Assembly (NCBI RefSeq): GCF_000010625.1
Contig: NC_010296.1
Location: forward strand, 2,520,001 to 2,552,000
Source of the DNA: Microcystis aeruginosa NIES-843
GTDB taxonomy: Bacteria; Cyanobacteriota; Cyanobacteriia; Cyanobacteriales; Microcystaceae
DNA length: 32,000 nucleotides
Direction: 5' to 3'
Notes under the pieces: generated by a model
The model's database searches: none
What the model saw: the letters and a program-made list of their open reading frames with translations, nothing else
Told to the model about the DNA's origin: nothing
Position numbers and translations under genes: made by a program
In this document: positions 1,745-22,092 of the stretch, one piece after another
Layout: every line of letters begins with the position of its first letter
Position numbering within the stretch: position 1 is the first letter of the stretch

Positions 1745-1939
1745 TAGTTACCAGATTTTTTCTCCCCCCGAACGCTTACTAAAAATCATCCATTTGTGAG
1801 AGTAGATCATCCATTGTATAAACGTGGAACTCTGCCTAAACTGAAGCTAAAGGGAATCAAACAATTCTTTGTTCATTCTTTAAGAACTATTCGTTGTCTC
1901 TACAGACTGCTATATTATTGATTGGAGAACACACCTACA

Positions 1940-4900
1940 ATGTCTGCTCAATCCTCAACCTCTAGCCTAACTGCTTTACAAAAAACACCGATCGCTATTA
2001 TTGGAATGTCGGCCTTATTTGCTAAAGCCAAGAATTTACAGGAATATTGGCAAAATATTCTCGGTAAAGTGAATGGAATCACTGAAGTGCCAGAAAGTGC
2101 CTGGAATTTAGAAGATTACTATGATCCAGACCCGAAAGCACCAGATAAGACCTATGGTAAATGGGGGGGCTTTTTGCCTAAAATTGATTTTGACCCCTTA
2201 GAATTTGGTCTGCCACCTGATACGTTAGAAGCTTTAGATTCGGCTCATTTACTTGGTTTAGTGATGGCTAAACAAGCTTTAGAAGATGCGGGTTATAACC
2301 AAGGAAAAGAGTTTAATCGAGAAACAACAGGGGTTATTTTAGGAGGAAGCGGACTCTGGAAAAGCATTACTCCCTTAACCAGTCGTCTGCAATATCCTCT
2401 CTGGAAGAAAATTTGCCAAAAAAGTGGTTTATCTCAAGAACAAACCGACAAAATTATCGAAAATATGAAGGCGGCCTATGTGCCTTGGCAAGAAAATTCT
2501 TTCCCCGGTATGTTACCAAACGTCGTAGCAGGTCGTATTACTAATCGCTTTGATTTAGGAGGAACTAATTGTGTGGTGGATGCAGCCTGTGCGAGTTCCT
2601 TAAGTGCTTTAAAAATGGCGATCAGTGAATTAATTGAAGGCCGTTGTGACATGATGCTTACAGGGGGCTTTGACACGGATAATTCCATCCTTAATTATAT
2701 GTGTTTTAGCAAAACTCCAGCTTTTTCTAAGAAAGATTGTCTCAATCCCTTTGATGCTACCTCCGATGGCATGATGGTAGGGGAAGGATTGGGAATGCTG
2801 GTGATTAAACGGCTTGAGGATGCAGAACGAGACGGAGATCGCATCTATGCAGTAATTAAAGGCATCGGGACTGCTAGTGATGGTCGTTTTAAAAGTATCT
2901 ATGCACCGCGTCCTGAAGGTCAAGTTAGAGCCTTACGGCGTGCCTATCAAGAGGCGGGATTTTCTCCCGCTACCTTGGGGTTAGTTGAGGCCCATGGTAC
3001 TGGAACACCAGCAGGAGATTTTTGTGAATTTACAGCCCTGAATGAGGTTTTTAGCGAAAATAACGCAGAAAAGCAAACGATTGCTCTGGGTAGTGTCAAA
3101 TCTCAAATTGGTCATACCAAGGCGGCGGCGGGTGCTGCAAGTTTAATTAAAACGACTTTGGCCTTACATCATAAAATTCTTCCTGCTACCATTAACATTA
3201 CCGAACCCAACCCTAAATTTAAGATTGAAGACTCGCCTTTTTATCTCAATACTGAAACCCGTCCTTGGTTGTCCAAAGGAGAGACACCGAGACGAGCCGG
3301 GGTTAGTTCCTTTGGTTTTGGGGGAACTGATTATCATGTGGTGTTAGAAGAATATACGCCCAAATTACCCCAAGGAGAAAATCGAATTCATCACCGTCCC
3401 CAATCAATTTTACTCTGGGGTCAAAATCCTGAAGAATTAAGACAAACTTGTCAAAAAGCTCTAGAACAGTTGCAATCTCCCCAAGGGTCACAAGTTTATA
3501 TTGAACTACAAAATCAAAGCAAATCGGCTCAACTTCCCTTAAAGGTTGCTAGAGTGGGCTTTGTTGCGACTTCCTTGGCGGAAGCTATTAAATTACTGCA
3601 AGCAGCCGTTAAACAGTTGCAAAAACAGCCTCAAGCAGAGGCATGGGAACATCCCCAAGGTATTTATTACCGTAAGACGGGGTTATTACTGGAGGGAAAA
3701 GTCGTAGCATTGTTCCCCGGCCAAGGTTCTCAATACCTGAATATGGGTCGAGAAATTGCCCTAAATTTGCCAGAAATCCAAACCGCTTATCAAAAATTGG
3801 ACATATTGAGAGCTAAAGCGGGTTTAACGCCCCTTTCAGCAGGAGTATTTCCGATTCCTACCTTTAACGAGGTGGACGAAAAACGGCAAACCTCTTTACT
3901 GCAACGGACGGAAAATGCTCAACCTGCGATCGGGGCTTTCAGTGTAGGACTGTATAAAACGTTGCAAAAGACGGGATTTAAGCCAAATTTTGTGGCCGGT
4001 CACAGTTTTGGGGAATTAACCGCACTCTGGTCCGCGGGCGTTTTCACAGACGACGATTATTATTACTTGATCCAAGCTAGAGGCCAGGCCATGGCCGCAC
4101 CGAAAGGAGCCACCCCTCAAGGGGCGATGTTAGCGGTGACGGGGAAAGTATCTCAGATAGCGCAATGGGTTGAAGGAATGGCCAATGTGCAGATTGCTAA
4201 CTATAATGCACCTGAACAGGTGGTATTATCGGGATTAGCCTCAGAAATTGCCACTATTGAGAAGATTTTAAGCTCTCAAGGCTATCAGGTTACGCCTTTA
4301 CCCGTGTCTGCTGCTTTTCATACTTCTCTAGTACGTCATGCTAGTCAACCCTTTGGGAAAGCGTTGGATCAAGTGACGTTTCATGCGCCCCAACTTCCGG
4401 TTTATGCTAATGTGACGGCGGCCCCTTATCCCAAAGATTTATCAGGGATGCGTCAGCTTTTAGAAGCTCAGTTGTTGAATTCGGTTCAGTTTGTCCAACA
4501 AATTGAAAATATTTATGCTCAAGGCGGATATTGCTTTGTGGAAATTGGACCGCGCCAAATTCTCACTAACTTAGTTAAACAGATATTAGGCGATCGCCCT
4601 CATCTGGCCATTGCGCTCAACCCCAGTCGGCAAAAGGACAGTGATATTCAACTGTCACAAGGAGTAATGCAGCTTCGAGTTTTAGGTTTACCGTTAAACG
4701 ATCTGGAAAATGCAGCTTTGACGGTGAAGACTTCCTCAAGCAAACGCAAAGGTATGACCCTTAAGCTGAATGCAACCAACTACATCAGCGATAAAACCAA
4801 AGCTTTGATCGGAGCTGCATTACAACCTGATTCACCTGCGGAAATAGAACCGTCAGTTGATTCCCAAACGGTTGAATCTAAGTGTGAGGAAGTGAAAGGG

Positions 4901-5761
4901 TCGGAAAACGAGGAAATTTTAGCCTCTATTCCTTCCGTCAACCCTTATCCTTCTGATTCTCAGCCTCTTTCAGAGGAAATTCCAACACTCAATTTATCTA
5001 TTGTTTCTCAAGATCAAACTGTAACCATGACTATGAACAACGCTATTTCTAACAACATCAACCCTATTTTACAAGCATTCTACCAATATCAACAGAGTCT
5101 TGCCAAGGTTCACGAAGAGTACATTAAACATCAATCCCAGAGTTTTCAATCAGTGTTGCAGTTATTCAAACAAAAAGAGATGACAGTAGTTGCTCAAATT
5201 GACGAACTCTCTACTCCTGCTGCTTCTTCGGAGAATTCAAAATTTGATCGGCCAAATTCAGAGGTTTCCTCTGTTAGTTTTCCTGATCCTACCCCTTTTA
5301 AGTCTGAACCTCAGCCCTTACGAACTCTAGAACCTCAACCTTTAAACATTGCACCTCAACCCTTACCGACTCCCGAACCTGAACCCGTTCACATTTCCCC
5401 CATTGTCAACTATTTAGAACCTCGTCAACCCATTGCACCCATCTCTACACCTGAACCTGTGTCAGGAGTGAGCGAACCTTCTTTAGACTCCATTCAAGAT
5501 GATGCACTGAGTCAAGCCTTATTAGAGGTTGTCAGTGAAAAAACAGGCTATCCTACGGAAATGTTGGCATTAGAAATGGATTTAGAGGCAGATTTAGGCA
5601 TTGACTCGATCAAACGGGTAGAAATCATGGGAAGTCTGCAAGAAGCTTTCTCTGGGTTGCCCAAACTTAGCCCTGAAGCGTTAGCAGAAAAACGTACCCT
5701 AGCCCACATTGTTCAGTACTTGAGGGAGAAAATGATGGTGACAGAAAAAAAAATAGCTTAG
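1940..5761 (+). CDS. PfaA/HglE-like megasynthase subunit: KS - AT - Pro-rich linker - single ACP
   Basis: KS motifs: VVDAACASSL (Cys codon 2588-2590), VEAHGTGT, SQIGHTKAAAG. AT motifs: FPGQGSQY, GHSFGE (Ser codon 4004-4006), AAFHT. There is one carrier motif, DLGIDSIKRVE (Ser codon 5606-5608). The ATG at 1940, with GGAG about 13 nt upstream, is preferred over the TTG at 1922 used by the track. Confidence 0.9.
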   Translation: MSAQSSTSSLTALQKTPIAIIGMSALFAKAKNLQEYWQNILGKVNGITEVPESAWNLEDYYDPDPKAPDKTYGKWGGFLPKIDFDPLEFGLPPDTLEALDSAHLLGLVMAKQALEDAGYNQGKEFNRETTGVILGGSGLWKSITPLTSRLQYPLWKKICQKSGLSQEQTDKIIENMKAAYVPWQENSFPGMLPNVVAGRITNRFDLGGTNCVVDAACASSLSALKMAISELIEGRCDMMLTGGFDTDNSILNYMCFSKTPAFSKKDCLNPFDATSDGMMVGEGLGMLVIKRLEDAERDGDRIYAVIKGIGTASDGRFKSIYAPRPEGQVRALRRAYQEAGFSPATLGLVEAHGTGTPAGDFCEFTALNEVFSENNAEKQTIALGSVKSQIGHTKAAAGAASLIKTTLALHHKILPATINITEPNPKFKIEDSPFYLNTETRPWLSKGETPRRAGVSSFGFGGTDYHVVLEEYTPKLPQGENRIHHRPQSILLWGQNPEELRQTCQKALEQLQSPQGSQVYIELQNQSKSAQLPLKVARVGFVATSLAEAIKLLQAAVKQLQKQPQAEAWEHPQGIYYRKTGLLLEGKVVALFPGQGSQYLNMGREIALNLPEIQTAYQKLDILRAKAGLTPLSAGVFPIPTFNEVDEKRQTSLLQRTENAQPAIGAFSVGLYKTLQKTGFKPNFVAGHSFGELTALWSAGVFTDDDYYYLIQARGQAMAAPKGATPQGAMLAVTGKVSQIAQWVEGMANVQIANYNAPEQVVLSGLASEIATIEKILSSQGYQVTPLPVSAAFHTSLVRHASQPFGKALDQVTFHAPQLPVYANVTAAPYPKDLSGMRQLLEAQLLNSVQFVQQIENIYAQGGYCFVEIGPRQILTNLVKQILGDRPHLAIALNPSRQKDSDIQLSQGVMQLRVLGLPLNDLENAALTVKTSSSKRKGMTLKLNATNYISDKTKALIGAALQPDSPAEIEPSVDSQTVESKCEEVKGSENEEILASIPSVNPYPSDSQPLSEEIPTLNLSIVSQDQTVTMTMNNAISNNINPILQAFYQYQQSLAKVHEEYIKHQSQSFQSVLQLFKQKEMTVVAQIDELSTPAASSENSKFDRPNSEVSSVSFPDPTPFKSEPQPLRTLEPQPLNIAPQPLPTPEPEPVHISPIVNYLEPRQPIAPISTPEPVSGVSEPSLDSIQDDALSQALLEVVSEKTGYPTEMLALEMDLEADLGIDSIKRVEIMGSLQEAFSGLPKLSPEALAEKRTLAHIVQYLREKMMVTEKKIA

Positions 5762-5817
5762 TTGTTACCTCTACCCAGTCTAACCATCGAAAACACGGTG
5801 ATATTGGACGTTATCAA

Positions 5818-6537
5818 ATGAAACTGAAGCCCCTTGCTGCACCAGATTATTGGGATTTTCCCTCAACCCCTGATCAAACCTGTTTGGTGACCGATGATGG
5901 TTCATCTACTACTGCCCAAGTTGCTCAAAGTTTGCTAAACCAAGGCTGGCAAGTTGTGGTTCTCAGTTTCCCTCAATTCCTTATTCCTGCTTGTTCTTCT
6001 CTTCCTGCGGGGGTTCGACATTTTGTTCTCAATCATTTAAGTGAAGAACATTTACAATCACAATTGGGAGATATATTTAAAACTTGTGGACTGATCGGCA
6101 CATTTATTCATTTACATCCTCTCCTTCAGGGGTTTAATCAAGATCAAGAGACTTCAATTAATTCTGATCAAGCGATTGTTAAACAAGTGTTTTTACTAGC
6201 CAAACATCTTAAATCTTCTCTGACGCAAGCGGCCAGTCAAGGACGCAGTTGTTTTCTCAGCTTAACCCGTTTAGATGGAGAATTTGGTCTCAGTGGAAAA
6301 CGAGAATTTAGCCCTATTAGTGGCGGTTTATTTGGCTTAACGAAAACCTTAAATCTAGAGTGGGAATCGGTCTTCTGTCGCGCTCTAGATATTAGTCCCG
6401 ACTTAGATGAAATGACAACGGCTCAAATTGTTTTAGCTGAATTGCATGATCCTAATAGCTTAATTCAAGAGGTGGGTTATACCCCAAAAGGTCGAATGAC
6501 TTTGACTTGTGAATTAGCTTCTTTGAGCAGTAATTAG
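5818..6537 (+). CDS. Pseudo-KR (structural Rossmann-like subdomain with a degenerate NADPH loop) as a separate ORF
   Basis: LVTDDGSSTTAQVAQSLLNQGWQVVVL replaces a TGGxGxxG loop. IGTFIHLHP, FLSLTRLDGEFG and GGLFGLTKTLNLEW follow SDR strand order but lack the S/Y/K/N catalytic residues. Its position, between the ACP and the catalytic KR, matches the pseudo-KR of PfaA-type proteins (recollection, not a search). Its frame is open upstream to 5677. Confidence 0.55.
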   Translation: MKLKPLAAPDYWDFPSTPDQTCLVTDDGSSTTAQVAQSLLNQGWQVVVLSFPQFLIPACSSLPAGVRHFVLNHLSEEHLQSQLGDIFKTCGLIGTFIHLHPLLQGFNQDQETSINSDQAIVKQVFLLAKHLKSSLTQAASQGRSCFLSLTRLDGEFGLSGKREFSPISGGLFGLTKTLNLEWESVFCRALDISPDLDEMTTAQIVLAELHDPNSLIQEVGYTPKGRMTLTCELASLSSN

Positions 6538-6650
6538 GGAAAAGTTAATAGTTAGAATAAAATTAGCTGGGCGCGAGCATTGCGCCCCTACAGAATTATA
6601 TTTATTCAAATAAATTACGGTATAAATTCTGATTTTTAGCTAATCTATAC

Positions 6651-6685
6651 TAACTATTAACTATCAACTATCAACTATCAACTAA
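6651..6685. repeat. Heptamer tandem array (YAACTAT)x5
   Basis: TAACTAT TAACTAT CAACTAT CAACTAT CAACTAA, read directly, in the spacer between the pseudo-KR and KR-DH ORFs. Confidence 0.9.
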
Positions 6686-6691
6686 CACGGT

Positions 6692-8458
6692 ATGTTACCC
6701 ATGATTAATGATACTCAACTTAATTCATCTTCGGTGGTTATTGTCAGTGGTGGTGGCCGAGGAATTACGGCTCAATGCGTTATCTATTTGGCGCAACAAT
6801 ATCATTGTAAATTTATTTTATTAGGTCGTTCGCAAATTTTATATCCTGAACCTGAATGGAGTCTTTCTTGTCAAGATGAGTCTCAGTTAAAAAAGCAAAT
6901 TATGCAACATTTAACAACTCAAAATGAAAAACCAACTCCGAAAAAAGTTCAAGCACTGTATCAACAACTCTGTCAAAGTCGTGAAATTAAGCAAACCTTA
7001 TCAGAGATTGAAAAAGTAGGAGGAAAAGCCGAGTATTGCAGTGTTAATGTTACCGATTCACAGCAACTAAAAGCAACTTTAAGACCGATTATTCAACGTT
7101 GGGGAGAGATTACGGGCATTATTCATGGTGCGGGAACGTTAGCAGATAAATTAATTGAAAACAAAACTGAACAGGATTTCGATAAGGTTTATAGTGTCAA
7201 AATTGATGGGTTAAATAGTTTATTAGGTTCCCTAGAAGTTAACCGATTAAAATTTATTGCCTTATTTTCTTCTTTTGTTTCATTTTATGGCAATATCGGT
7301 CAATCTGACTATTCTTTAGCTAACGAAATTTTGAACAAATATGCTTATTTACTTCAACAAAAATATCCTAAATGTCATGTTGTTTCTATTGGGTGGGGTC
7401 CTTGGGATGGGGGAATGGTGACACCACAGCTTAAACAGTTGTTTGAGCAGCAAAATATTAAGGTTATTCCTCAACAAACAGGGGCGCAAATGTTAGCGGA
7501 AGAATTAACCCAAACTCAAGCTAAAACCCCTCAGATTATTGTCATGAGCAACCCTATTTCTCCTTCTCCTAAACTGGTTACACCGCAAAAGCATAGTTAC
7601 CGTTTATATCGTCGGTTGACGTTACGAGGAAACCCTTTCGTTTATGATCATGTCATTGGGGGAAATGCAGTTTTACCTGCGATGTGTGCGTTAGCATGGA
7701 TCACTAATAGTTGCGAACAACTTTATCAAGGATATCGTTTTTTAAGTTGTCATAACTATCAGGTGCTTAAAGGAGTTGTCTTTGATAAAAGTTTAGCTAA
7801 TTTGTATTGTTTGGATCTGACTGAAGTTGAGAAAACAGAAGATGAAATTAAATTTGAAGCCTTAATTTGGAGTGAAACCGCTAAAGGAATTCCCCTTTAT
7901 CATTATCGGGCGATTATTAATATTACTAAACAAGTAATAGCTGAGAGAAAACTTGAGGAAAGTATTCAGCCTGTCACGGAATCTTTCCTTAATTTACAAC
8001 CCTATCAAGCAGGAGTTCTTTTTCATCAGCCCAGATTTCAAGGAATTAAGAAAATCTTAGAAATTAATAACAACGAACTTCTTTTTAACTGTTACTTACC
8101 TAAAATTTCTACACAAGATCAAGGACAGTTTAGCGTTCAATCCTTTAATTCTTATACGGCTGATCTCTTGTTTCAATGTCTTTTAGTTTGGGTCAGAAAA
8201 CACTACAATTCGGGTAGTTTACCCCTAAAACTAAATGAGCTTGAGCAGTTTAGTTCCCTCCCTTTTAATCAAGAATTTTGGATAAAATTATCCATTAATG
8301 AACATAGTGATACTAAGGTAATTGCTAATGCACTTGCTTATCATTCTCAAGGGAAAATTTATTTAGAAGCAACTAATATGGAGGTTACTTTGAGTTCTTG
8401 TCTTAATGTTTTGTTTCTTAACAATACGGTGAATTCATCGAATACTGTTTGCTTGTAA
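6692..8458 (+). CDS. Catalytic ketoreductase + PKS-type dehydratase di-domain protein
   Basis: KR: VVIVSGGGRGITAQC (NADPH loop), IIHGAGT, FSSFVSFYGNIGQSDYSLANEILN (S...Y...N). DH: YDHVIGGNAVLPAM (HxxxGxxxxP, His codon 7649-7651) and a downstream ADLLFQ (DxxxQ). Confidence 0.8.
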   Translation: MLPMINDTQLNSSSVVIVSGGGRGITAQCVIYLAQQYHCKFILLGRSQILYPEPEWSLSCQDESQLKKQIMQHLTTQNEKPTPKKVQALYQQLCQSREIKQTLSEIEKVGGKAEYCSVNVTDSQQLKATLRPIIQRWGEITGIIHGAGTLADKLIENKTEQDFDKVYSVKIDGLNSLLGSLEVNRLKFIALFSSFVSFYGNIGQSDYSLANEILNKYAYLLQQKYPKCHVVSIGWGPWDGGMVTPQLKQLFEQQNIKVIPQQTGAQMLAEELTQTQAKTPQIIVMSNPISPSPKLVTPQKHSYRLYRRLTLRGNPFVYDHVIGGNAVLPAMCALAWITNSCEQLYQGYRFLSCHNYQVLKGVVFDKSLANLYCLDLTEVEKTEDEIKFEALIWSETAKGIPLYHYRAIINITKQVIAERKLEESIQPVTESFLNLQPYQAGVLFHQPRFQGIKKILEINNNELLFNCYLPKISTQDQGQFSVQSFNSYTADLLFQCLLVWVRKHYNSGSLPLKLNELEQFSSLPFNQEFWIKLSINEHSDTKVIANALAYHSQGKIYLEATNMEVTLSSCLNVLFLNNTVNSSNTVCL

Positions 8459-8503
8459 TTTTTTCTCAATTGATACCCTATTTACATTTTCACAGGAGAT
8501 ATT

Positions 8504-11500
8504 ATGAAACCTTCCAAATTAGCGATCGCTGGAATAAGTGGCTTCTTTAATCAACTGTTAACCAGTCAACAACTATCAGCTTTAATTTATCAAGGAAACT
8601 CCCTTGATTATTCTAACAAACCGATCAGTGATCATTCTTGGTCTATCCTATCAAAGATGTCTGATCAAGGGTTAAAAGATTGTACTTGTAAGATAGGAAA
8701 AAAAGTCGCTTTAATTACTGCTAATAATATTAGCAACAATCAAGAAACTGAGCTTAAAAATATTAGTTATCAATTGGAAAGATTATGGAATTGTTCCATT
8801 GTTCCCTTTCAATTAACCCAAGTATCTGATTCTTTATTAAAGTCTCTCGAATTAGCCCAAATTCTCTTAACTGCCAAAGAAGTTGATACAGTCATTATTA
8901 GTGCGCTTAATACGGATTCTGAGTCTATTATTGGCGGAGCTTTAATCCTCAAAGATTATGAAACAATCCAAAACAATAATAGTACGCTTTTTTACGGGAT
9001 TATTGATAGCTTTAGTAAAATAGTTAACCCCTTATCTTCTCCATCAGTTGCGATTAAACAAAGTTGTCAGCAAGCATTTAAAAATGCTAAGATTCACCCC
9101 TCAAATATTGGTTATTTAGCTGTTTCCTCAAGAGAGATAGATCAAGGGTTATTAGAAGCTTATTATGCTAATCATAATAACCTAACTTGTGCAGTTGGAA
9201 CAGTCCAAGAGAATAATAATAACTTAGGGATAACTGAAGATTTAATTAGCTTAATTAAAACAGCACTTTGCTTAAAAAATCGTTATCTTCCTGCTTCCGC
9301 TCAACTGTTAACTTCTAATCTTACTCAAGAATGGCAAAATAGTTCTTTTTATCTACCTGATGTATCACTTCCTTGGTTTCTTGAAAAAGGACAAGAAAAA
9401 CGCTATGCTGCGCTTAATTTAGTCAATCAAAATAATACTTATAGTCATTTAATTTTATCGGAAGCAACTCCTCAAAGTACACCCAATAATGGCTATTTAC
9501 CCTATGCACCATTTTATCTATTTCCCCTCGCTGGAAATGATAGTTCATCTTTACAAAGTCAGCTTGATAACTTAACCCATAGTATTGAAAACAGTTTCTC
9601 CTTACCCCATCTTGCCAAAGAGAATTTTATTCAGTTTCAACAGAATTCTCAGTCTCCTTATGTTCTAGCAATTGTTGGGAATAACAAAGAAGCTTTGCAA
9701 AAGGAAATTAAACAGGCTAAAAAAGGAATTGATAAAGCCTTTCACACAGGAAAGCCGTGGAAAAGTCCCCAAGGAAGTTATTTTACCCCTAAACGGTTAG
9801 GAAAAGTGGGTAAAGTCGCTTTTGTTTATCCCGGTGCGTTTAACTCCTATTTAGGAATGGGAAGAAATCTTTTTCAATTATTCCCTAAATTATGGGAGAG
9901 AGCAGAGAGTTTAATTAGTGATCCTGCTACCTTTTTTCAAGCAAACTCTCTTTATCCTCGCCGTCAATCTCCCCTTTCTAAACAAGACTTAGAAACCCTA
10001 GAAACTCAATTCATTGCTAACCCTTTATCTCTCTTAGAAACGGGAACGGGTTTTGCGGTTTTATTCACCGAAATTATGCAGAAATATTTTAAAATTAAAC
10101 CTGATGCTGCCTTCGGTTATAGCATGGGAGAAAGTACCATGATGTATTCATTAGGAGTCTGGCCAAATGCGGATCAAGGAAGTCGATTTGTTCATTCTTC
10201 TCCCCTATTTAAAACCCGTTTAATGGGAGCTAAACAAGCCGTTGCAGAATCTTGGGGTCAACCGATAGATGAAAATTCATGGAGTAGTTATGTTTTAATG
10301 GCTACAGCTGAAGCAGTTCAGGAATGTCTAAAAACAGAAAGTAAGGTTTATTTAACCCATATTAATACCCCTCAAGAAGTTGCGATCGCAGGAGATTCTC
10401 AAGGTTGTTTACGGGTGATTGAAAAATTACAATGTGATCGGTTTCGTTCGCCTTCTGATATGGTTTTACATTGTGAAGTTATGCAATCAGAATACAATGA
10501 GTTTCTTAAGCTAAATACGGTGACAATGGGAACAGCACCTGATACTATTTTTTATTCCTCTTCTCATTATGATTCTCTGACCTTAGAACAAGAGAAAATT
10601 GGTGATCATTTAAGTCAAGGAATGTGTAAAATGTTAGATTTTCCTCGCTTAATTGAACGCACTTATCAAGACGGAGTGAAAATCTTTCTAGAATTAGGAT
10701 CAGGAGGAAGTTGTTCTCGTTGGATATCAGAAACTCTTGGTCAAAAAGAGCATCTTGCATTGTGTATTAATCGTCGAGGTGCTGATGATTTAGCGACCAT
10801 TATTAAGATGTTAGCACAATTAGTCAGTCATGGGGTAGAACTAGACTTATCCCCTCTTTATTTAACAGATGAAGCAGAAACCTTAGAGGCGATTTTTAAG
10901 ACAGTGTTAACCACAGCACCCAAAGCTAATATTGAACCCCAAACTGAGCAACAAAATTCAATTATTCGAGAAAATACTGCTTCTCAAAAAGTCGCTGTTT
11001 TAGTCGCTTCTTCTACTCAACTTCTTTCCCAAGTTCCAACCATTTCTACGGTTGATCATTCAAGAACAAGCGTTATTTCTTCTCATCCTAAAACCGTTAA
11101 ACCTTGTTTATTTGATCAACCTGAGATCCTCGAATTTATTGAAGGTAAAGTCTCTAAGGTTTTTGGTCAAGAATATGAACCCATTGATCATTATACCCAA
11201 CGAGTCAGAATGCCGTCTCCTCCCTTTTTGTTCGTCAGTCGGGTGACTCAATTAGAAGGAAAATTAGGTGATTATAAATCAGGTTTCATCGAAACAGAAT
11301 ATGATGTACCAGAAGATGCTTGGTATGCAGTAGATGGTCAATTAACGGTAGGAATTTGTAAAGAAGCCGGCCACGGACTCCTGATGCTATTAAGTTATAT
11401 CGGGACAGATTTTGAAAATCAAGGAAAACGCTCTTTCCGTTTATTAGATTTATCTGCAACCTTCTTATTTGAACAACCCGAAAACGTTAAGTTGTTACGG

Positions 11501-13507
11501 TGTCGAGTTAAGATCACATCTTCGGTTAAAACTGATGATAGCTTATTAATTTTCTTTCAAGGAGAGGTGTTAATTGGGGATCAAGTTTGGATGAAATTTC
11601 ATGACGGTTGTGCTGGACTCTTTTCTGATGAAGAATTAGAAAAAGGACAGGGAATTGTGCTAAAAGAGGCTGAAGAAAAAGAAAGAAACTTGATTAAAAG
11701 ACAACAGTTTACTCCTCTTTTAACTTGTTCTAAGTCATCCTTTAAAAAGGAAGAAATTTTTAATCTAAGTCGAGGAGATATTGAGGCTTGTTTAGGGAAA
11801 AACTATCAACAAAATGGCTTAAATTCTTCCCTCAGATTACCCCCAGAAAAACTCTTAATGTTAGAGAAAGTGATGATGGTAAATCCTCAAGGAGGAATAG
11901 CTGGACTAGGGTTAGCAGTGGGAGCAAAACAGATCACTCCTGAGGACTGGTATTATTCTTGTCATTTTAAAAATGACCCCACTTTACCGGGGAATTTAAT
12001 GATTGAAGGAAGTATCCAACTGGTGCAATTTTATTGTTTATGGTTAGGGTTACAAACTCACAGGAAAGATGCTCGTTTTCAGGTGATTCCAAATCAAACC
12101 CAAGCAGCCCGTTTTCGGGGACAAGTGACTCCCCAACATGGAACTTTAATGTATCAAATGGAGGTGTTAGAAATTGGACTTTCTCCTCAACCTTATCTTC
12201 TGGCTAATGTGGATGTTATTTTTGGCGGAAAAACCATTGCTACTATTAAAAATATTGGTGTTCAACTGGTAGAAAAAACAGACACCATTCCCAGTATTTT
12301 CCCACCCATTGAGTCAGGAACATTCCCCCATATTTCCCAATTATCAAAACAGTCATCGGTTTTATTTAATGAAAACCAATTAAAAACCTTTGCTAAAGGA
12401 TCAGTGGCTGCCTGTTTGGGATCAGAATTTGACATTTATGAAAATCGTCAATCGGTTCGTTTACCTAACGGGGAGTTTCAGTTAGTCAGTCGGGTATTAG
12501 ACATCGAAGGTAAACGTCATGAATTGCAAAAACCATCGGAAATTATTACCGAATTTGATGTCAAAGAAAATGCTTGGTTTTATAACCATAATGCCTATCC
12601 CACTTTGCCCTACTGTACTTATATTGAAATTGCCGGTCAACCTTGTATTTTCTTAGGGGTTTATATGGGAGCAACTTTATTATTCCCAGAAGATGATCTT
12701 CATTTTCGTAATTTGGATGGACAGGGAACAATTCTCAAAGAAATTGACCTCCGTAATAAAACCATTACGGATAAAGTTCGTCTCCTTTCTACCACCGCTA
12801 TTCAAGGGGCAATTATTCAAAAGTTTGAGTTTGAGTTATCTTGTGAAGGTGAGCCTTTTTATCGGGGAAATATGGTCTTTGGAGACTTTAGCACAGCCGT
12901 GTTAGCGAATCAAGTGGGACTTGATGGTGGAAAACGTCTTAAACCTTGGTATCAACTGAATAATTTATCCGATTTAACCCTACAGGAAATTAATTTACAA
13001 GATTCCTTAACTCACCAAACCTTCTATTCAGTAAATCCTGAAAAACCCCATTATCGTCTTTCTCAAAATTATCTTGATTTTATCGAAAAAGTTTTCCTAA
13101 TTCAAGATGGGGGTAAGTATCAAAAAGGATATATTTATGCCAGCCAATCAATTACTCCCGAAGATTGGTATTTTCCCTTCCATTTCTATCAAGATTCCGT
13201 GATGCCTGGTGCATTAGGCGTTGAGTCTATTCTTCAAGCTATGCAAACTTATGCGCTGCAATTAGACTTAGGCAAATCTTTCAAAAATCCTCGCTTTGGT
13301 CAAGCCATTAATCATCAAATCACCTGGAAATATCGAGGACAAATTACACCCGAAAATCGTTTAATGTCTTTAGAAGTGCATATTTCCGATATTCGAGTCG
13401 AAGATGATGTAATCACAATTATCGGAGATGCCAGTCTTTGGAAAGAAGACTTAAGAATTTACGAAATTAAAGACATCGCCCTGTGTCTATTAGACAGTGA
13501 AGAGTGA
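8504..13507 (+). CDS. PfaC/PfaB-like subunit: CLF-like (inactive KS) - AT-like - two tandem FabA-type dehydratase/isomerase units
   Basis: The N-terminal KS fold aligns to the ORF2 KS, but the Cys/His/His positions read LTQVSDSLL, YLAVSSREI and VQENNNNLG. AT-like: VYPGAFNSYLGMG and GYSMGE (Ser codon 10121-10123). FabA-like sites: SCHFKNDPTLPG (His codon 11963-11965) and FPFHFYQDSVMPG (His codon 13181-13183). Each is preceded by a pseudo-DH half (RVRMPSPPFLFVSRV / SVRLPNGEFQLVSRV). Confidence 0.85.
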   Translation: MKPSKLAIAGISGFFNQLLTSQQLSALIYQGNSLDYSNKPISDHSWSILSKMSDQGLKDCTCKIGKKVALITANNISNNQETELKNISYQLERLWNCSIVPFQLTQVSDSLLKSLELAQILLTAKEVDTVIISALNTDSESIIGGALILKDYETIQNNNSTLFYGIIDSFSKIVNPLSSPSVAIKQSCQQAFKNAKIHPSNIGYLAVSSREIDQGLLEAYYANHNNLTCAVGTVQENNNNLGITEDLISLIKTALCLKNRYLPASAQLLTSNLTQEWQNSSFYLPDVSLPWFLEKGQEKRYAALNLVNQNNTYSHLILSEATPQSTPNNGYLPYAPFYLFPLAGNDSSSLQSQLDNLTHSIENSFSLPHLAKENFIQFQQNSQSPYVLAIVGNNKEALQKEIKQAKKGIDKAFHTGKPWKSPQGSYFTPKRLGKVGKVAFVYPGAFNSYLGMGRNLFQLFPKLWERAESLISDPATFFQANSLYPRRQSPLSKQDLETLETQFIANPLSLLETGTGFAVLFTEIMQKYFKIKPDAAFGYSMGESTMMYSLGVWPNADQGSRFVHSSPLFKTRLMGAKQAVAESWGQPIDENSWSSYVLMATAEAVQECLKTESKVYLTHINTPQEVAIAGDSQGCLRVIEKLQCDRFRSPSDMVLHCEVMQSEYNEFLKLNTVTMGTAPDTIFYSSSHYDSLTLEQEKIGDHLSQGMCKMLDFPRLIERTYQDGVKIFLELGSGGSCSRWISETLGQKEHLALCINRRGADDLATIIKMLAQLVSHGVELDLSPLYLTDEAETLEAIFKTVLTTAPKANIEPQTEQQNSIIRENTASQKVAVLVASSTQLLSQVPTISTVDHSRTSVISSHPKTVKPCLFDQPEILEFIEGKVSKVFGQEYEPIDHYTQRVRMPSPPFLFVSRVTQLEGKLGDYKSGFIETEYDVPEDAWYAVDGQLTVGICKEAGHGLLMLLSYIGTDFENQGKRSFRLLDLSATFLFEQPENVKLLRCRVKITSSVKTDDSLLIFFQGEVLIGDQVWMKFHDGCAGLFSDEELEKGQGIVLKEAEEKERNLIKRQQFTPLLTCSKSSFKKEEIFNLSRGDIEACLGKNYQQNGLNSSLRLPPEKLLMLEKVMMVNPQGGIAGLGLAVGAKQITPEDWYYSCHFKNDPTLPGNLMIEGSIQLVQFYCLWLGLQTHRKDARFQVIPNQTQAARFRGQVTPQHGTLMYQMEVLEIGLSPQPYLLANVDVIFGGKTIATIKNIGVQLVEKTDTIPSIFPPIESGTFPHISQLSKQSSVLFNENQLKTFAKGSVAACLGSEFDIYENRQSVRLPNGEFQLVSRVLDIEGKRHELQKPSEIITEFDVKENAWFYNHNAYPTLPYCTYIEIAGQPCIFLGVYMGATLLFPEDDLHFRNLDGQGTILKEIDLRNKTITDKVRLLSTTAIQGAIIQKFEFELSCEGEPFYRGNMVFGDFSTAVLANQVGLDGGKRLKPWYQLNNLSDLTLQEINLQDSLTHQTFYSVNPEKPHYRLSQNYLDFIEKVFLIQDGGKYQKGYIYASQSITPEDWYFPFHFYQDSVMPGALGVESILQAMQTYALQLDLGKSFKNPRFGQAINHQITWKYRGQITPENRLMSLEVHISDIRVEDDVITIIGDASLWKEDLRIYEIKDIALCLLDSEE

Positions 13508-13652
13508 ACAGTTAACAGAGACCAGTGTATCTCGACTACTCGGTTAGTGCATTAACCATCGAATTGGGATAACCCCAGTTACCAGTGAATAGTAAACACC
13601 CATCTTTCTTTTCCGTCAGTTTAAAGTCAACAACAATGGAGAAATAAACCCC

Positions 13653-15227
13653 ATGTTAACTAGCCATAATTCTCTTACTAGCTCCCCTAAACCATCTATC
13701 TCCTTTGATAGTGAAGGAATTCGAGAAAAATTAGCCAATTTAGAGCAGCCTTGTTATGTATATGTCAAAAATAACCAGATAGGACTTTCTCACGAACCTA
13801 ATGCTGATATACTGCCCCGTAGCATGATTAATGCCCTATCACCCCAACAATTAGGCGATCGCGCTTTTTGTGACTTTCATGGTTTAGACTATGCTTATGG
13901 GGCGGGTGCAATGGCCGGGGGTATCGCTTCCGAAGATTTGGTGATTTCTCTGGGAAAAGCGGGATTTTTAGCCAGTTTTGGGGCAGCCGGGTTAGTTCCC
14001 CAACGGGTTGAAAAAGCCATTCACACCATTCAAGAAGCTTTACCCAATGGACGATATGCCTTCAATTTAATCCATAGCCCCTCAGAGGAAGCCCTAGAAC
14101 GGGGTTCAGTGGAACTTTACCTCAAATATGGGGTAAGAACTGTTGAAGCCTCTGCTTACCTGGATTTAACCCCCCATATTGTCCGTTACCGAGCATCAGG
14201 ATTACATCTAAATTCTCAAGGCGATATTGAAACCCAAAATAAGATCATTGCCAAAATTTCTCGGACCGAAGTTGCTCAGAAATTCTTAAAACCTGCTCCC
14301 CCTAAACTGCTGAAAGCTTTAGTTGAACAGGGACAAATTACAACCTTACAAGCAACTTTAGCTGAAAAAGTTCCTTTAGCCGATGATATAACCGTTGAAG
14401 CTGACTCTGGTGGTCACACAGATAATCGTTCTTTGGTTTGCCTTCTCCCTTCTATTATTGCCTTACGCAATGAGATTCAACAGCAATATCAGTATGAGCG
14501 TTCTATTAGAGTGGGGGCTGCTGGTGGGATTAGTACTCCAGAATCAGCCTTAGCGGCCTTTATGATGGGAGCGAGTTACATTATCACAGGTTCGGTGAAT
14601 CATGCTTGTATTGAAGCGGGAACATCTGAACATACCAAACAATTACTTGCCCAAGCAGCAATGGCCGATGTGGTAATGGCCCCTTGTGCTGATATGTTTG
14701 AAATGGGGGTGAAAGTTCAACTCTTAAAACGGGGAAGTTTATTCCCCATGCGCGCGCAAAAATTATATGATTTGTATCAAACTTATGAGGGAATTGATGC
14801 CATTCCGACCGAGGTTCGTCAAACCATAGAAAAGCAAATTTTCCAAAAACCATTAGAGGCCGTTTGGCAAGAAACCCTTGCTTATTTTCAAGAGCGAGAT
14901 CCCGAACAAATTGAACGAGCAAATAATAATCCTAAACGGAAAATGGCTTTAATTTTTCGCTGGTATTTAGGGCTTTCTTCTCGTTGGGCAACCAGTGGAC
15001 AGCCACAACGAACAATGGATTATCAAATTTGGTGTGGTCCGGCGATGGGTTCATTTAACGATTGGGTTCGAGGAACTTATTTAGAATTTTCCGAAAATCG
15101 TCAAGTGGTGGATGTAGCAACTCATATCATGCGCGGTGCAGCTTATCTCTATCGTCTGCAAAGTCTGAAGTTACAGGGGGTTAATCTTCCGTCTCCCTAT
15201 CATTTTTATCGACCCACGCCTCTTTAA
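13653..15227 (+). CDS. PfaD-family trans-acting enoyl reductase (nitronate monooxygenase / TIM-barrel FMN fold)
   Basis: DFHGLDYAYGAGAMAGGIAS, FNLIHSP, VEADSGGHTDNR and WCGPAMGSFNDW are strings I recognise as typical of PfaD/PksE-type ERs. GGAG lies upstream of the ATG. Confidence 0.9.
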   Translation: MLTSHNSLTSSPKPSISFDSEGIREKLANLEQPCYVYVKNNQIGLSHEPNADILPRSMINALSPQQLGDRAFCDFHGLDYAYGAGAMAGGIASEDLVISLGKAGFLASFGAAGLVPQRVEKAIHTIQEALPNGRYAFNLIHSPSEEALERGSVELYLKYGVRTVEASAYLDLTPHIVRYRASGLHLNSQGDIETQNKIIAKISRTEVAQKFLKPAPPKLLKALVEQGQITTLQATLAEKVPLADDITVEADSGGHTDNRSLVCLLPSIIALRNEIQQQYQYERSIRVGAAGGISTPESALAAFMMGASYIITGSVNHACIEAGTSEHTKQLLAQAAMADVVMAPCADMFEMGVKVQLLKRGSLFPMRAQKLYDLYQTYEGIDAIPTEVRQTIEKQIFQKPLEAVWQETLAYFQERDPEQIERANNNPKRKMALIFRWYLGLSSRWATSGQPQRTMDYQIWCGPAMGSFNDWVRGTYLEFSENRQVVDVATHIMRGAAYLYRLQSLKLQGVNLPSPYHFYRPTPL

Positions 15228-15262
15228 AAACCCCCTTATGAACCTTGTGCTGGAATTTTCCC

Positions 15263-16435
15263 ATGATGACTAAAAATGCCAATTCTCCCTTTTCTGTTGG
15301 ACTTCCCGCCCTTTATTTAGTGGCCTTTTTATCGGGAATTTCCCTAGGGTTATTTAATCCCTTTGTTTCTACCCTTATGAAAGAAAAGGGTTACGACAAT
15401 ATTGTTATTGGGGCAAATTCTACTCTTTACTTTTTTGTCATTGCCGCAGGAACACCGATTGTGGCTAGTATTCTTCGCCAAATTGGATTAAGAAAAACCA
15501 TGATGTTAGGATTCCTTTTAATGGGAATAACTGCACCTCTATTTGCCTTTACTACTCAATTATCTCTTTGGTTTATCATTCGTGGCGTTATGGGTTTGGC
15601 CTGTTGTTTATATCTGATTTCTGGACAAACCGCTATTAACTATTTTTGTAATGATCAAAATCGAGCCATGGTTAATGGTTTAGATGCTTTAGCTTTTAGC
15701 TTAGGTTTTGGTATCGGTCCGATTATGGGAGCAGTCGCCTATAATCTTTCTCCTAAGATCACTTTTTTATTAGGAAGTGGCTTGATTTTAAGTGGAATTG
15801 TTGTTGTCTTTTTTGGATTACCAGAGAAAACGGTTAAGTTTCAAAAGCCCAACTTTAGCATTATTCAAAAGCTCAAACTTCCCCTACAAGGAGCTTTTGC
15901 TTATGGCTTCAGTGTTGCCACCTTAGTTTCTCTTTATCCACTTTTTTTACTCGAACAAAACTATGGTATTGAGCGCATGGGTTTAATCTTTGGCTTGTTT
16001 ATTTTAGGCGGATTAATTTCAACCGTTCCTATTACTCATTTAGCCGATAAGATGGGTAAAGTTAAGGTTTTAGTCGGTAGTGTAATTATTGTAATTGTTT
16101 CAGTTTTTGGCTTATCTTTAATCGAAAATCCCATGATTACCCCCTTTTTAGCTTTTGTCTCTGGGGTAGGAATGAGTCCCATTTTTCCCTTATCATTAGC
16201 CCTGATTGGTTCTACCGTTACCCTTAATGAATTATCCTCCGGGAGTGCTGTCTTTACCTCAATTTATAGTGCAGGTTGTACCGCCGGTCCCATTCTATCA
16301 GCTATTGTCATGACCATGATGGGAACTCGGTATATCTTCTCATTAATGTTAGTCATTTTTGTCTTATTTTTGCTGAGTTTAAGTCAGTCCCAAAAGTCCC
16401 ATTCTGACTATCAACATTCTTCGGAGAATAGTTAG
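15263..16435 (+). CDS. MFS-type transporter
   Basis: About 390 aa and almost entirely hydrophobic, with about 12 predicted helices, a central loop (EKTVKFQKPNFS) and an MFS-like RQIGLRKT loop after TM2. The ATG at 15263 is preferred over the TTG at 15245. Confidence 0.75.
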   Translation: MMTKNANSPFSVGLPALYLVAFLSGISLGLFNPFVSTLMKEKGYDNIVIGANSTLYFFVIAAGTPIVASILRQIGLRKTMMLGFLLMGITAPLFAFTTQLSLWFIIRGVMGLACCLYLISGQTAINYFCNDQNRAMVNGLDALAFSLGFGIGPIMGAVAYNLSPKITFLLGSGLILSGIVVVFFGLPEKTVKFQKPNFSIIQKLKLPLQGAFAYGFSVATLVSLYPLFLLEQNYGIERMGLIFGLFILGGLISTVPITHLADKMGKVKVLVGSVIIVIVSVFGLSLIENPMITPFLAFVSGVGMSPIFPLSLALIGSTVTLNELSSGSAVFTSIYSAGCTAGPILSAIVMTMMGTRYIFSLMLVIFVLFLLSLSQSQKSHSDYQHSSENS

Positions 16436-16499
16436 GAAAGTTTCTTGAATTTTAACTACACTAATTAACCCCATTCACAATTTATTCAAGGACAAAATC

Positions 16500-17777
16500 A
16501 TGGAAAAATTAGCAATCATTGGTTCGGGTATTTCTGGCTCTCCCATCGCCTATTATCTTCAAGATCAATATGAGGTTGATGTCTATGAAAAAAGTAGTCG
16601 TGTCGGCGGTCATGCTCACACCTTAGATTTGGATGAGGATGGTCAACGGATTTCTTTTGATACGGCTTTTGTGGTTTGTAATAAACCTAATTATCCCAAC
16701 TTGATGAAATTTTTTGCTGATTTAGGAGCAGAGACTCAAGATCATTTAGGCGGATTTAATTTTTATAATTTGGATACTGGAATGCAGTTTAATTCCCTAG
16801 ATCTAGAACTGCCGATGGAAGAATTCGCTCGTCAGCAACCTTCAGAATTAGTCGCTTGTTATCAAGAAGCTAAACGTTTTTTCTCAGAAGCACGGGCTGA
16901 TTTTTGGGAAGGAAAAACGAGAATTTCTATGCAAGAATATCTAGATAAAAATAACTATAGCCAAGCCTTTCGAGATAACTTTGTCATGCTAATGGGATCA
17001 GCCGTTTGGTCAATTCCTACTGATTTATTAATGGAGTTTCCCGCTTCAACTTTTATCAGCTTTTTTATGACTCATGACCAAGGCGGTTTAGGGGGAAAAA
17101 CGGTCGAATGGCAAACCGTTAAAGGGGGAAGCAGTCGTTATGTTGAAAGGGTCAAAGATGCTTTAAAGAAACCCATTCGCACTGAGCAAGAAGTGATTTC
17201 CGTTAAAAAAAGAGAAGACGGAAAAGTAACGATAAAAACGACCACAGATGAAGAAGTTTATGATAAGGTGGTTATGGCTACTCACGCTGATCAAGCATTA
17301 GGAATACTTGCTGAACCAACTGAATTAGAACAAAACATCCTAGGCTGTTTTAAGTATAATGAAACCGCCGTAACTGTTCACACTGATCCAGTTATTATGA
17401 ACCCCGATCGCAGTAAATGGCAATCCTGGAATTATGGGCAAGTAACTAAAGAAGGAAAGCTTTATACTTATGTGACTTATTATGCTAACAAAGTCCATAA
17501 TTTTACCGCCAAGAAAGATTATTTTGTTTCCTTAGATACCCCACCTATCGCCATTGATGAAGACAAAATTATCCGCATTCTTAAGTATCGACATCCAGCT
17601 TATGACATGAATACTCTAGAAGCCCAAAAACAAATTTATCAACTCAATGAAACTGGCCCTATTTACTTCTCAGGGACATATTTCCACATCAAAAAACGAG
17701 GCATTGATTCCTACGGATTTCATGAAAGTGGCATCGGTTGTGCGGTTGAATTAGTGGAACGTTTGAGAAAAGGATAA
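16500..17777 (+). CDS. FAD-dependent oxidoreductase, amine-oxidase fold (COG2907-like)
   Basis: N-terminal dinucleotide motif KLAIIGSGISGSPIAYYL followed by VDVYEKSSRVGGHAHT. The 425-aa length and overall pattern match the 'NAD/FAD-binding protein' family often found next to lipid-modifying genes (recollection). Confidence 0.75.
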   Translation: MEKLAIIGSGISGSPIAYYLQDQYEVDVYEKSSRVGGHAHTLDLDEDGQRISFDTAFVVCNKPNYPNLMKFFADLGAETQDHLGGFNFYNLDTGMQFNSLDLELPMEEFARQQPSELVACYQEAKRFFSEARADFWEGKTRISMQEYLDKNNYSQAFRDNFVMLMGSAVWSIPTDLLMEFPASTFISFFMTHDQGGLGGKTVEWQTVKGGSSRYVERVKDALKKPIRTEQEVISVKKREDGKVTIKTTTDEEVYDKVVMATHADQALGILAEPTELEQNILGCFKYNETAVTVHTDPVIMNPDRSKWQSWNYGQVTKEGKLYTYVTYYANKVHNFTAKKDYFVSLDTPPIAIDEDKIIRILKYRHPAYDMNTLEAQKQIYQLNETGPIYFSGTYFHIKKRGIDSYGFHESGIGCAVELVERLRKG

Positions 17778-17977
17778 TGTTTGGCAAAATACAGAATCAA
17801 TAATCAGCAACTATACTCAAGTATTTTGGTTGACTCTTTTGAGTAAATTCAACTACAGTTAACCATAAGTTTCTTAAAAGAAGTTGAAAAATTCTAATCT
17901 TTTTTGAAACCTCCTTTAGGTTAGAGAAAAGATTCTTGACTACAAACTCTAAAAAATTGACACAGGAGACTTAAACA

Positions 17978-18727
17978 ATGCTCTCAAAACATCTAGTAAC
18001 TCTATTAGGATTAACCTCTGTAATCGCTCTTAATCCTGTTCTTTCTGTTCATGCCGAACCTCAAGTTTATTTAGAAGTTGAGGGAAAAGAAAGCCTAGAA
18101 CTAAATACTAATACTTTAGCTATTTTAGAAAATATTGGATTAACACTGAGCGATGTTGAAAGTACCGCAACGCCTGCCCCCGGCTTTTCCATTGGTTCCG
18201 TTTTATTGCCTCCCAATTCTGACCCCAATGTTCGAGGAACGACTTATACTTTCCTCTATGATGATGACCCTGTTCTTTATGTTCCCTTGGGCGGAACAGA
18301 AGAGTTTTTAGGAACGTTTACCTTTGAGGTAGATACCACCAAGTTGAATGGACTAGGAACACAATTCACGATTGGCAATTTTTCCAATTCTTTTGACGAA
18401 GATTTTAATTTTTTTGTGACTGATACAGCCAATACAGGTTTGCAAGTCTTTGATGTTGCATCATCAGGTATTCCTAATATTGATCTTAATACTCTGACTT
18501 TCGTGCTTGAAGGAATTGAATTATTCTTTTCTCAAGAATTCAGTGACTTGTTAGTAAATGCAGGGGCTACTCAGTCAGTAGCGGGATTAAAATTCATTGA
18601 TGGTAGAGCCGATCGTTCTTTGATGTTAGTCTCTGCTTCAACTCCTGAACCCTCATCAATTTTAGCTCTAATTCTGTTAGCAGGAGGCGGTATTATTGGC
18701 GGAATTAGACAAAATCAAAAAAAATAA
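17978..18727 (+). CDS. Secreted PEP-CTERM sorting-domain protein
   Basis: Signal peptide MLSKHLVTLLGLTSVIALNPVLSVHAEP. The C-terminus is STPEPSSILALILLAGGGIIGGIRQNQKK, i.e. PEP motif + TM helix + basic tail. AGGAG lies upstream. Confidence 0.8.
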   Translation: MLSKHLVTLLGLTSVIALNPVLSVHAEPQVYLEVEGKESLELNTNTLAILENIGLTLSDVESTATPAPGFSIGSVLLPPNSDPNVRGTTYTFLYDDDPVLYVPLGGTEEFLGTFTFEVDTTKLNGLGTQFTIGNFSNSFDEDFNFFVTDTANTGLQVFDVASSGIPNIDLNTLTFVLEGIELFFSQEFSDLLVNAGATQSVAGLKFIDGRADRSLMLVSASTPEPSSILALILLAGGGIIGGIRQNQKK

Positions 18728-19432: not shown

Positions 19433-19556
19433 GGTCGAACAGCCCACTCGCCTCAGTTTTCCAACAATATGACGGTAAAAAAACGGTGATCTAGCTTAAT
19501 TGAGGTCAAGTACTGAAAAAAATGCCGATCATCAACCTAAATTTTCAAAAACGGGT

Positions 19557-22077: not shown

Positions 22078-22092
22078 TGGTTATCAGTAGAA

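Follow-up and report, generated by a model that had tools for sequence, protein, structure and literature searches.

Secondary lipid synthases related to the polyunsaturated fatty acid (PUFA) synthases, Pfa, and the heterocyst glycolipid synthases, Hgl, have been recorded from Microcystis on several occasions. Shulse & Allen (2011) defined a Type G synthase with two type I polyketide synthase (PKS) genes 'always' upstream (PMC3098273), Humbert (2013) a 37-40 kb cluster, MIC1 (PMC3741299), and Penn (2014) a 'cluster 4', the PKS/nonribosomal peptide synthetase (NRPS) cluster with the highest transcription in a bloom. A study in JACS Au (2026) described a clade II of PKS-NRPS-PUFA-synthase-like triple hybrids and, for M. 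aeruginosa NIES-843, remarked on the split pfaA, a Rossmann open reading frame (ORF), the fused pfaBC and a halogenase (PMC13291983). The product is given as unknown in each publication. In a pangenome study hglE-KS-type clusters are confined to three Microcystis genospecies (PMC9839332). The present analysis concerns 32,000 nucleotides of NIES-843 (contig NC_010296.1, positions 2,520,001-2,552,000; hereafter the window), of which positions 1-18727 make up the 3' half of a hybrid lipid-polyketide-peptide cluster that continues upstream, the one already known as Type G (2011), MIC1 (2013), cluster 4 (2014) and clade II (2026). The original prediction, made from the letters alone, had treated seven ORFs of this region as the cluster; they are neither self-contained nor a new observation, but belong to the 3' portion of the MIC1/Type G hybrid (~37-40 kb), published in 2011, 2013, 2014 and 2026. 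Its description of the product as cryptic stands, as does its placing of a Pfa/Hgl-type secondary lipid synthase in Microcystis, which profile scores and protein identity to NIES-843 bear out; it had also asked whether the gene order was on record with an assigned product, and in the literature searched the product is only ever described as unknown.

The reading that best accommodates the evidence, to which a probability of about one half is given, is that the PKS-NRPS assembly line, which has no loading device of its own, receives a long acyl starter from the pfa-like synthase, the product then being released and exported. The identity of the locus itself is plain. ORF2, ORF4, ORF5 and ORF7 correspond residue for residue to BAG02607, BAG02609, BAG02610 and BAG02612 of NIES-843, and gene order is unchanged in other Microcystis assemblies. 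As in Type G, pfaA is split with a small Rossmann-fold gene between its parts, pfaBC is fused and without a functional pair of ketosynthase (KS) and chain length factor (CLF), as seen in ORF4, and type I PKS and NRPS genes directly adjoin (Microcystis contigs L013 and L064). The NRPS gene is cut by the left end of the window, where frame 1 stays open from the first base through 1329; this stretch encodes the last 442 residues of a 974-aa adenylation-condensation (A-C) protein, complete in L013, and its condensation-superfamily domain had been missed by the original prediction. The upstream content, read from related Microcystis contigs including L013 and L064, comprises in order an AraC/PAS regulator, an 87-aa acyl carrier protein (ACP), a 599-aa flavin halogenase, a KS-acyltransferase (AT)-ketoreductase (KR)-ACP protein (PKS1), a KS-AT-ACP-C-peptidyl carrier protein (PCP) protein, and the 974-aa A-C protein.

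Domains were called with Pfam and NCBIfam profiles, the cut-offs being 1010.1 for the PfaA model TIGR02813 and 449 for the PfaD model TIGR02814. The seven co-directional ORFs lie within 1922-17777 as had been claimed, with intergenic gaps of 17-154 nt (Table 1). Nearly all of the earlier domain assignments are supported by these profiles, and the KS, AT, ACP, KR, dehydratase (DH) and enoyl reductase (ER) calls were upheld by the hidden Markov model check that the original prediction itself had proposed; the part that did not stand is the 'CLF-like' segment of ORF4, which appears instead to be a truncated, dead KS. The ORF1 KS carries the motifs DAACASS, HGTGT and GHT and its AT the motif GHSFG. 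The ORF1 ACP is present as a single copy (motif GIDSI), with one PP-binding domain and one DSI motif, and so the earlier claim of a single ACP holds; so does that of a single competent KS among the pfa genes, since what ORF4 has of a KS lacks the Cys and both His residues. In ORF3 the KR has GGGRGIT and YSLAN, and the PKS-type DH has HVIGGNAVLP and DLLFQ. The 1273-aa ORF1 product (start at 1940) is that called in public contigs, and the 1279-aa version has no exact match. As had been noted, no thioesterase (TE), thioester reductase (TR), phosphopantetheinyl transferase or glycosyltransferase was found in any window ORF scanned. The further statement that no release enzyme is visible was too strong, since the Ser-intact PfaB-type AT and the terminal condensation-superfamily domain at 1-1329 are candidates. 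Scans for tRNA and Rfam families gave no matches, and those for promoters and terminators gave chance level only.

Table 1. Features of the cluster and its 3' edge, in window coordinates.
Feature	Assignment	Position	Strand	Profile match or content
NRPS domain	C-terminal condensation-superfamily domain of A-C NRPS, runs off left end	1..1329	+	Pfam Condensation E 1.9e-45
ORF1	HglE/PfaA-N homologue, KS-AT-ACP	1940..5761 (1922 alternative start)	+	TIGR02813 1413.7 bits (model positions 4-1078)
ORF1 parts	KS; AT; Pro/Ser-rich linker; ACP	~1985-3199; ~3710-4639; linker; ~5513-5722	+	
ORF2	HglF-like, predicted pseudo-KR	5818..6537	+	TIGR02813 positions 1756-1977, E 7.5e-33
ORF3	HglG/PfaA-C homologue; KR ~6734-7408, PKS-type DH ~7580-8389	6692..8458	+	TIGR02813 positions 1991-2582
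ORF4	PfaB/PfaC fusion	8504..13507	+	PfaB-family AT and two FabA domains
ORF4 parts	KS-like remnant; AT; DH1; DH2	8504-9373; ~9794-10873; ~11729-12289; ~13004-13504	+	
ORF5	PfaD-type trans enoyl reductase	13653..15227	+	TIGR02814 679.7 bits
ORF6	Major facilitator superfamily (MFS) transporter, putative exporter	15263..16435	+	Pfam MFS_1 E 1.1e-45
ORF7	MAO-family FAD flavoprotein, amine-oxidase fold ('predicted NAD/FAD-binding protein' in sources)	16500..17777	+	
ORF8	Secreted PEP-CTERM protein	17978..18727	+	Signal peptide, beta-sandwich, PEP-CTERM anchor
Transposase remnant	DUF4277 transposase N-terminal remnant, likely 3' edge of island	19223..19447	-	

The division of the PfaA equivalent into three ORFs, which tile the PfaA model, was correctly described in the original prediction, but it is not unusual. 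ORF2 has no Pfam match and its Gly-rich cofactor motif was not found; it aligns to the stretch of the PfaA model that directly precedes the KR, the cofactor loop is degenerate (TDDGSxTT), and Phe replaces the catalytic Tyr (FGLTK). An AlphaFold (AF2) model of ORF2, with a mean confidence (pLDDT) of 87.8, matches the short-chain dehydrogenase/reductase (SDR) fold in a fold search. The modelled fold, without an intact cofactor loop or Tyr, identifies ORF2 as a predicted pseudo-KR, in agreement with the earlier call. Homologues of ORF2 (n=352) occur in Hgl-type and other pfa-like blocks. The layout in which a small ORF stands between KS-AT-ACP and KR-DH genes recurs in a Lyngbya Hgl-type island (L138), where it is accompanied by a KS-KS gene and a reductase and where the ORF2 homologue (55% identity) precedes the KR-DH gene, in Anaerolineae as a stand-alone pfa-like block, in Altericista, and in the Nostoc and Cyanothece relatives of the cluster; hglE, hglF and hglG are likewise among the shared core genes hglEAFGCA (PMC11804610). 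Because the layout recurs in these lineages and in the hgl literature, the three-ORF split is, to judge from the sequences compared, a lineage trait, the HglE/HglF/HglG arrangement, rather than a local oddity.

The reduced condensing capacity of the block similarly appears to be a property of the clade. The first 290 residues of ORF4 are KS-like with three large deletions, and with both the Cys and the two His residues absent; at 47% identity to the Cyanothece orthologue this is the least conserved segment of the protein, as compared with 70-81% for the others. These features identify the 'CLF-like' N-terminus as a probable truncated, dead remnant derived from a KS. The remainder of ORF4 is in better order: the AT scores 140.7 bits against the PfaB-family model (cut-off 144.3) and has the Ser motif GYSMG, and FabA matches with E 5.9e-93 across two stretches, with the His motif in both. 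In Nostoc flagelliforme CCNUN1 the plasmid-borne PfaBC has a full-length KS-like domain (L060:12635-14300), which the literature treats as a KS; in a four-sequence alignment it has Glu at the Cys position and Phe at the first His, and thus looks catalytically dead and CLF-like. Since neither the ORF4 remnant nor the N. flagelliforme domain has the catalytic residues, the clade appears to have a single working KS in its pfa block.

The genes upstream of the window are most readily understood if the chain made by the pfa block is passed to them. PKS1 opens at residue 1 with a Cys-active KS, and no fatty acyl-AMP ligase (FAAL), loading AT or GNAT domain is present in the extended cluster. The stand-alone ACP is ~80% identical to Asl1650 of Anabaena 7120 (PDB 2AFD, E 9e-43), its top-scoring NCBIfam family is that of the Pks13 N-terminal ACP, and it is orthologous to the stand-alone ACPs of the relatives of the cluster. 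The N-terminal ACP of Pks13 carries a long acyl chain. N. flagelliforme has the pfa genes first, followed by the ACP and a KS-first PKS, and in Altericista a glycosyltransferase, the ACP and an assembly line come after the pfa genes in that order. Supply of the starter by the pfa-like synthase is therefore favoured on four counts: PKS1 has a condensing KS and the stand-alone ACP is present, in both cases without a loader; the pfa block has no TE or TR yet retains a Ser-active PfaB-type AT; pfa genes precede an orthologous, Pks13-like ACP in N. flagelliforme and Altericista; and the parts stay linked through four arrangements, i.e. the NIES-843 type, a convergent type in Microcystis sp. LSC13-02, a divergent type in Cyanothece and the pfa-first type in Nostoc. 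PfaB-type ATs have been implicated in product off-loading in PUFA synthases.

With regard to these arrangements, in LSC13-02 (L014, NZ_MTBT01000082.1) ORF5-7 are inverted relative to the NRPS terminal domain, with genes for a HlyD-like protein (518 aa) and a 1057-aa protein lying between, and it can be inferred that the rest of the pfa block is inverted along with them. The notion that the pfa block had been inserted between the terminal domain and the MFS gene, which arose from loci covering 10 kb on either side, was dropped. ORF2 homologues sit further along the same Nostoc contigs, so the parts are rearranged there, not absent.

In the proposed pathway ORF1-5 would act as an iterative Pfa/Hgl-type synthase, using one KS, a malonyl-AT, one ACP, a KR with the pseudo-KR, the DHs and the trans-acting ER, and would build a long acyl chain, possibly partly unsaturated, on the single ORF1 ACP. 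Release of the chain as a free lipid is not envisaged, because neither a TE nor a TR is present; rather it may be handed, via the PfaB-type AT of ORF4 or directly, to the Asl1650-type ACP and the KS that opens the upstream PKS. A WxWxIP motif is present in the halogenase, whose nearest solved relatives, e.g. PltA, are carrier-protein-dependent; an enzyme of this type may halogenate the tethered chain. The two PKS modules would extend the chain, the first leaving a beta-hydroxyl and the second a beta-keto group, and an amino acid would then be incorporated by the split NRPS module, whose C-PCP part is followed by an A domain on a separate protein. The A domain passes TIGR01733 and its hand-derived specificity code, DIWHISLIDK, is close to the Ser code, so that the residue added is probably serine. 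The terminal domain, predicted to be derived from an epimerase, would then off-load or modify the N-(3-oxoacyl)-aminoacyl thioester, the MAO-family flavoprotein would tailor the product, and the MFS protein would export it.

The terminal domain is the sole candidate for an off-loading domain of the NRPS line in the cluster. Its HHIIAD motif is intact, whereas Arg stands in place of the catalytic Glu of epimerization (E) domains (HRSHGRD; EGHGRE aligns to RSHGRD). It matches the PvdL E domain with 95 bits, as against 30 bits for the neighbouring C domain; the E domains of TycA and GrsA match over their full length, that of bacitracin synthase 3 matches too, and all seven E-domain motifs are recognisable. 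The variant HR[SV]HGR recurs in 43 of 47 related loci, with cyanobacteria, Paenibacillus, Shouchella, Methylocaldum and Anaeromyxobacter among the hosts, and where the sequence extends downstream the MFS gene is usually next; homologues of ORF6 (56-66% identity) follow the terminal NRPS domain directly in Nostoc and Moorena loci. In Paenibacillus a relative of the domain is part of one C-thiolation-A-(terminal-domain relative)-SDR protein. A homology search with the window C domain returned fragments only, not the full NRPS, and an exact look-up of the truncated domain gave no match.

It may be that the domain belongs to an unrecognised, widespread family of epimerase-derived off-loaders, marked by the invariant Arg for Glu and by constant pairing with an MFS gene, that release N-(3-oxoacyl)-seryl-S-PCP by carbanion chemistry, e.g. 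a Dieckmann reaction; we regard this as a long shot, though as speculation a Dieckmann-type release is chemically attractive because the substrate would be an N-(3-oxoacyl)-aminoacyl thioester. If true, the product would be a halogenated, very-long-chain 3-acyl-tetramic acid on a PUFA-synthase-derived starter.

The retained HHxxxD motif can also be taken to mean that the terminal domain condenses. In the zeamine pathway a stand-alone condensation enzyme joins two chains, and by analogy the pfa synthase and the PKS-NRPS of NIES-843 might make separate chains that the terminal domain links by an ester or amide. This has precedent in zeamine and other triple-hybrid pathways, and the terminal-domain gene does lie directly upstream of the PfaA homologue in Microcystis. 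However, a search of the window and of the 16 kb upstream gave no zeamine-type aminotransferase, thioester reductase or stand-alone condensation enzyme, and without an aminotransferase, TR or TE there is nothing to provide a lipid nucleophile or free lipid; PKS1 would still have no starter-loading device; the domain is epimerase-like, unlike a typical acceptor-binding C domain; and it occurs with the MFS gene where pfa genes are absent within 10 kb (Paenibacillus, Shouchella and others). A convergent pathway is accordingly considered rather unlikely.

Several observations weigh against starter supply by the pfa-like synthase as well. The Microcystis gene order is not collinear with it, the pfa genes following those of the NRPS, and the same presumably applies to Anabaena. 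Transfer of an acyl group from ACP to ACP by the ORF4 AT is putative, and serine was assigned by aligning motifs manually rather than with a predictor. The terminal domain is closer to E than to C domains, without the E-domain Glu. The pairing of terminal domain and MFS gene in loci with no pfa genes within 10 kb, e.g. in Paenibacillus and Shouchella, weakens any specific tie of that pair to the lipid.

The order of the Microcystis genes, which runs PKS, NRPS, pfa, could be taken at face value, such that the acyl-aminoacyl thioester made by the PKS-NRPS primes the PfaA-type KS and is elongated by the iterative synthase. We think this very unlikely: PKS1 would have no starter and a terminal release enzyme is missing downstream of the pfa synthase, N. 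flagelliforme has the opposite order, and in most relatives the terminal domain adjoins the MFS gene, suggesting that the assembly line finishes with the NRPS.

Nor need the two halves be related at all; ORF1-5 might make a membrane or envelope lipid with the PKS-NRPS as an unrelated neighbour. The pfa-like block with the HglE/F/G split stands alone in the Anaerolineae contig, the Lyngbya Hgl-type island has the split together with a thioester reductase, and in NIES-843 the NRPS stop and ORF1 are ~600 nt apart, a weak promoter-like site lying in the gap. A release enzyme for a free lipid is, however, absent in Microcystis, the four linked arrangements extend across genera, and published surveys count the pfa block and PKS-NRPS as one cluster. 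An independent lipid is thus judged improbable, and the supply of a starter to the PKS-NRPS remains the preferred explanation.

The cluster does not have the appearance of a relic. Comparison of strains gives dN/dS values of 0.05-0.45 and no internal stops in isolate genomes, orthologues in Cyanothece are 70-88% identical, and the catalytic motifs of the ORF1 KS, both ATs, the ACP, the KR, the PKS-type DH and both FabA domains are intact, all of which suggests a functional, not a decayed, cluster. Decay into pseudogenes, which the original prediction had named as grounds for withdrawing it, is therefore not what was found. That the reduced domain set reflects erosion of a non-functional remnant can be argued from the truncated, fast-evolving KS-like part of ORF4, from the breakage of ORF3 or ORF4 in a few metagenome contigs and from the insertion sequence remnants that flank the island; set against the intact motifs, the selection and identity values above and the high in-situ transcription that has been published, this idea is hardly credible. 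The metagenome contigs concerned are from blooms (L005, L008 and L009), with ORF3 or ORF4 called as two shorter genes, and may reflect assembly error or occasional decay in natural populations.

ORF7 is 88% identical to its Cyanothece homologue, and its best PDB match is LkcE (E 4e-21), of which the conserved catalytic residues are E64, Y182 and R326 (PMC6162330). A role as an LkcE-type amide oxidase/Mannich cyclase was considered and rejected, because these three residues are replaced by Val, Phe and Tyr in ORF7. In Moorena (L022) a homologue, 75% identical, sits between two NRPS genes, which ties ORF7 to the amino-acid end of the pathway. ORF8 gave no match in a sequence search of the PDB; its AF2 model (pLDDT 83.8) yields a weak, HtaA-CR-like result in a fold search (TM 0.41/0.57). 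Homologues near the terminal domain and MFS gene in five loci (L018, L019, L022, L030 and L049) indicate that ORF8 recurrently travels with the cluster. In Nostoc sp. LEGE 12450 (L018:12667-15529) the PEP-CTERM homologue is separated from the MFS gene by genes for an SRPBCC 'polyketide cyclase', for a cytochrome P450 and for a DUF4386 protein; these extra tailoring genes are absent in Microcystis. Compared with a PCC 9717 contig (L001), the ORF8 gene has ~78% DNA identity, ORF5 and ORF6 100% and ORF1-4 ~98%, a mosaic suggestive of recombination within the island.

In L064 a fragment of a DDE transposase is present upstream. The GC content of the ORF3-ORF4 region (6000-13000) is 34-38%, as compared with 44-50% in the flanking housekeeping genes (20000-29000; pyruvate kinase, porin); low GC and transposase remnants are consistent with a mobile accessory island. 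Heptanucleotide tandem repeats of 4-10 copies, in the style of the cyanobacterial STRR sequences, occur at or between ORF ends, at 6652-6684 (between ORF2 and ORF3), 20472-20616, 23540-23690, 27724-27756 and 31721-31756. A patatin-like phospholipase is encoded at 30263-31360 (- strand), 11.5 kb past the cluster and beyond pyruvate kinase and porin; it is probably unrelated.

Relative to the published accounts, the present comparison adds that the 'Rossmann protein of unknown function' is, from its motifs, a likely pseudo-KR equivalent to HglF, that the Microcystis pfaBC seemingly retains a truncated KS remnant, that the 'KS' of N. flagelliforme likewise appears to lack the Cys and first His, and that the terminal NRPS domain is apparently epimerase-derived with a Glu to Arg exchange; the loader-less PKS with an Asl1650-type ACP and the serine module are probable further refinements. 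As a finding from a genome scan the locus adds little, its odd features being already in print, but it is a worthwhile orphan for experiments. Microcystis is the main freshwater bloom-former, the structure of the product, once solved, would add a compound class to the bloom metabolome, and solving the cluster would reveal the way in which a modular assembly line draws on a PUFA-synthase-type machine that has a single KS and a single ACP.

Among known systems, the Hgl islands (Type F) share with the NIES-843 cluster the HglE/HglF/HglG split, a PfaD-type ER and a cyanobacterial origin. By contrast with them, a KS-CLF(-AT) pair, a thioester reductase and a glycosyltransferase are lacking in the window and the 10 kb upstream, in line with the original prediction that no heterocyst glycolipid island is present; there are two FabA-type DHs where Type F has none, the block is coupled to a PKS-NRPS, and the host has no heterocysts. 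The Lyngbya island L138, of the Hgl type, has KS-KS and NAD_binding_4 genes, unlike the NIES-843 cluster. In Anabaena a paralogous HglE2 is reported to be dispensable for glycolipids (Saito & Awai 2020, as cited in PMC11804610).

With the marine pfaABCDE systems the cluster shares the PfaA vocabulary of KS-AT-ACP-KR-DH, a PfaB-type AT, two FabA-type DHs and a PfaD ER. It differs from them in having one ACP rather than a tandem array, no functional PfaC KS-CLF pair, PfaA in three parts rather than a single protein, PfaB and PfaC fused, and no pfaE nearby. The zeamine, fabclavine, megapolipeptin and chitinimine triple hybrids combine a PUFA-synthase-like lipid module with a PKS-NRPS, as in NIES-843; megapolipeptin-type clusters carry a TE, whereas the NIES-843 cluster does not. 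The NRPS E domains of TycA, GrsA and PvdL are the best solved relatives of the terminal domain, which differs from them in the invariant Arg in place of the Glu of EGHGRE and in its position, terminal, after an A domain and paired with an MFS gene. The logic that we favour has its counterpart in Azotobacter, where the type I fatty acid synthase/PKS ArsA/D passes an ACP-bound long chain, unreleased, directly to ArsB/C as PKS starter; there the acceptor is a type III PKS, whereas in the NIES-843 cluster a modular type I PKS, together with the stand-alone ACP, would receive the chain. The closest comparison is with Type G/MIC1/cluster 4/clade II, for which the genome is the same, the gene content matches and the sequence is without difference.

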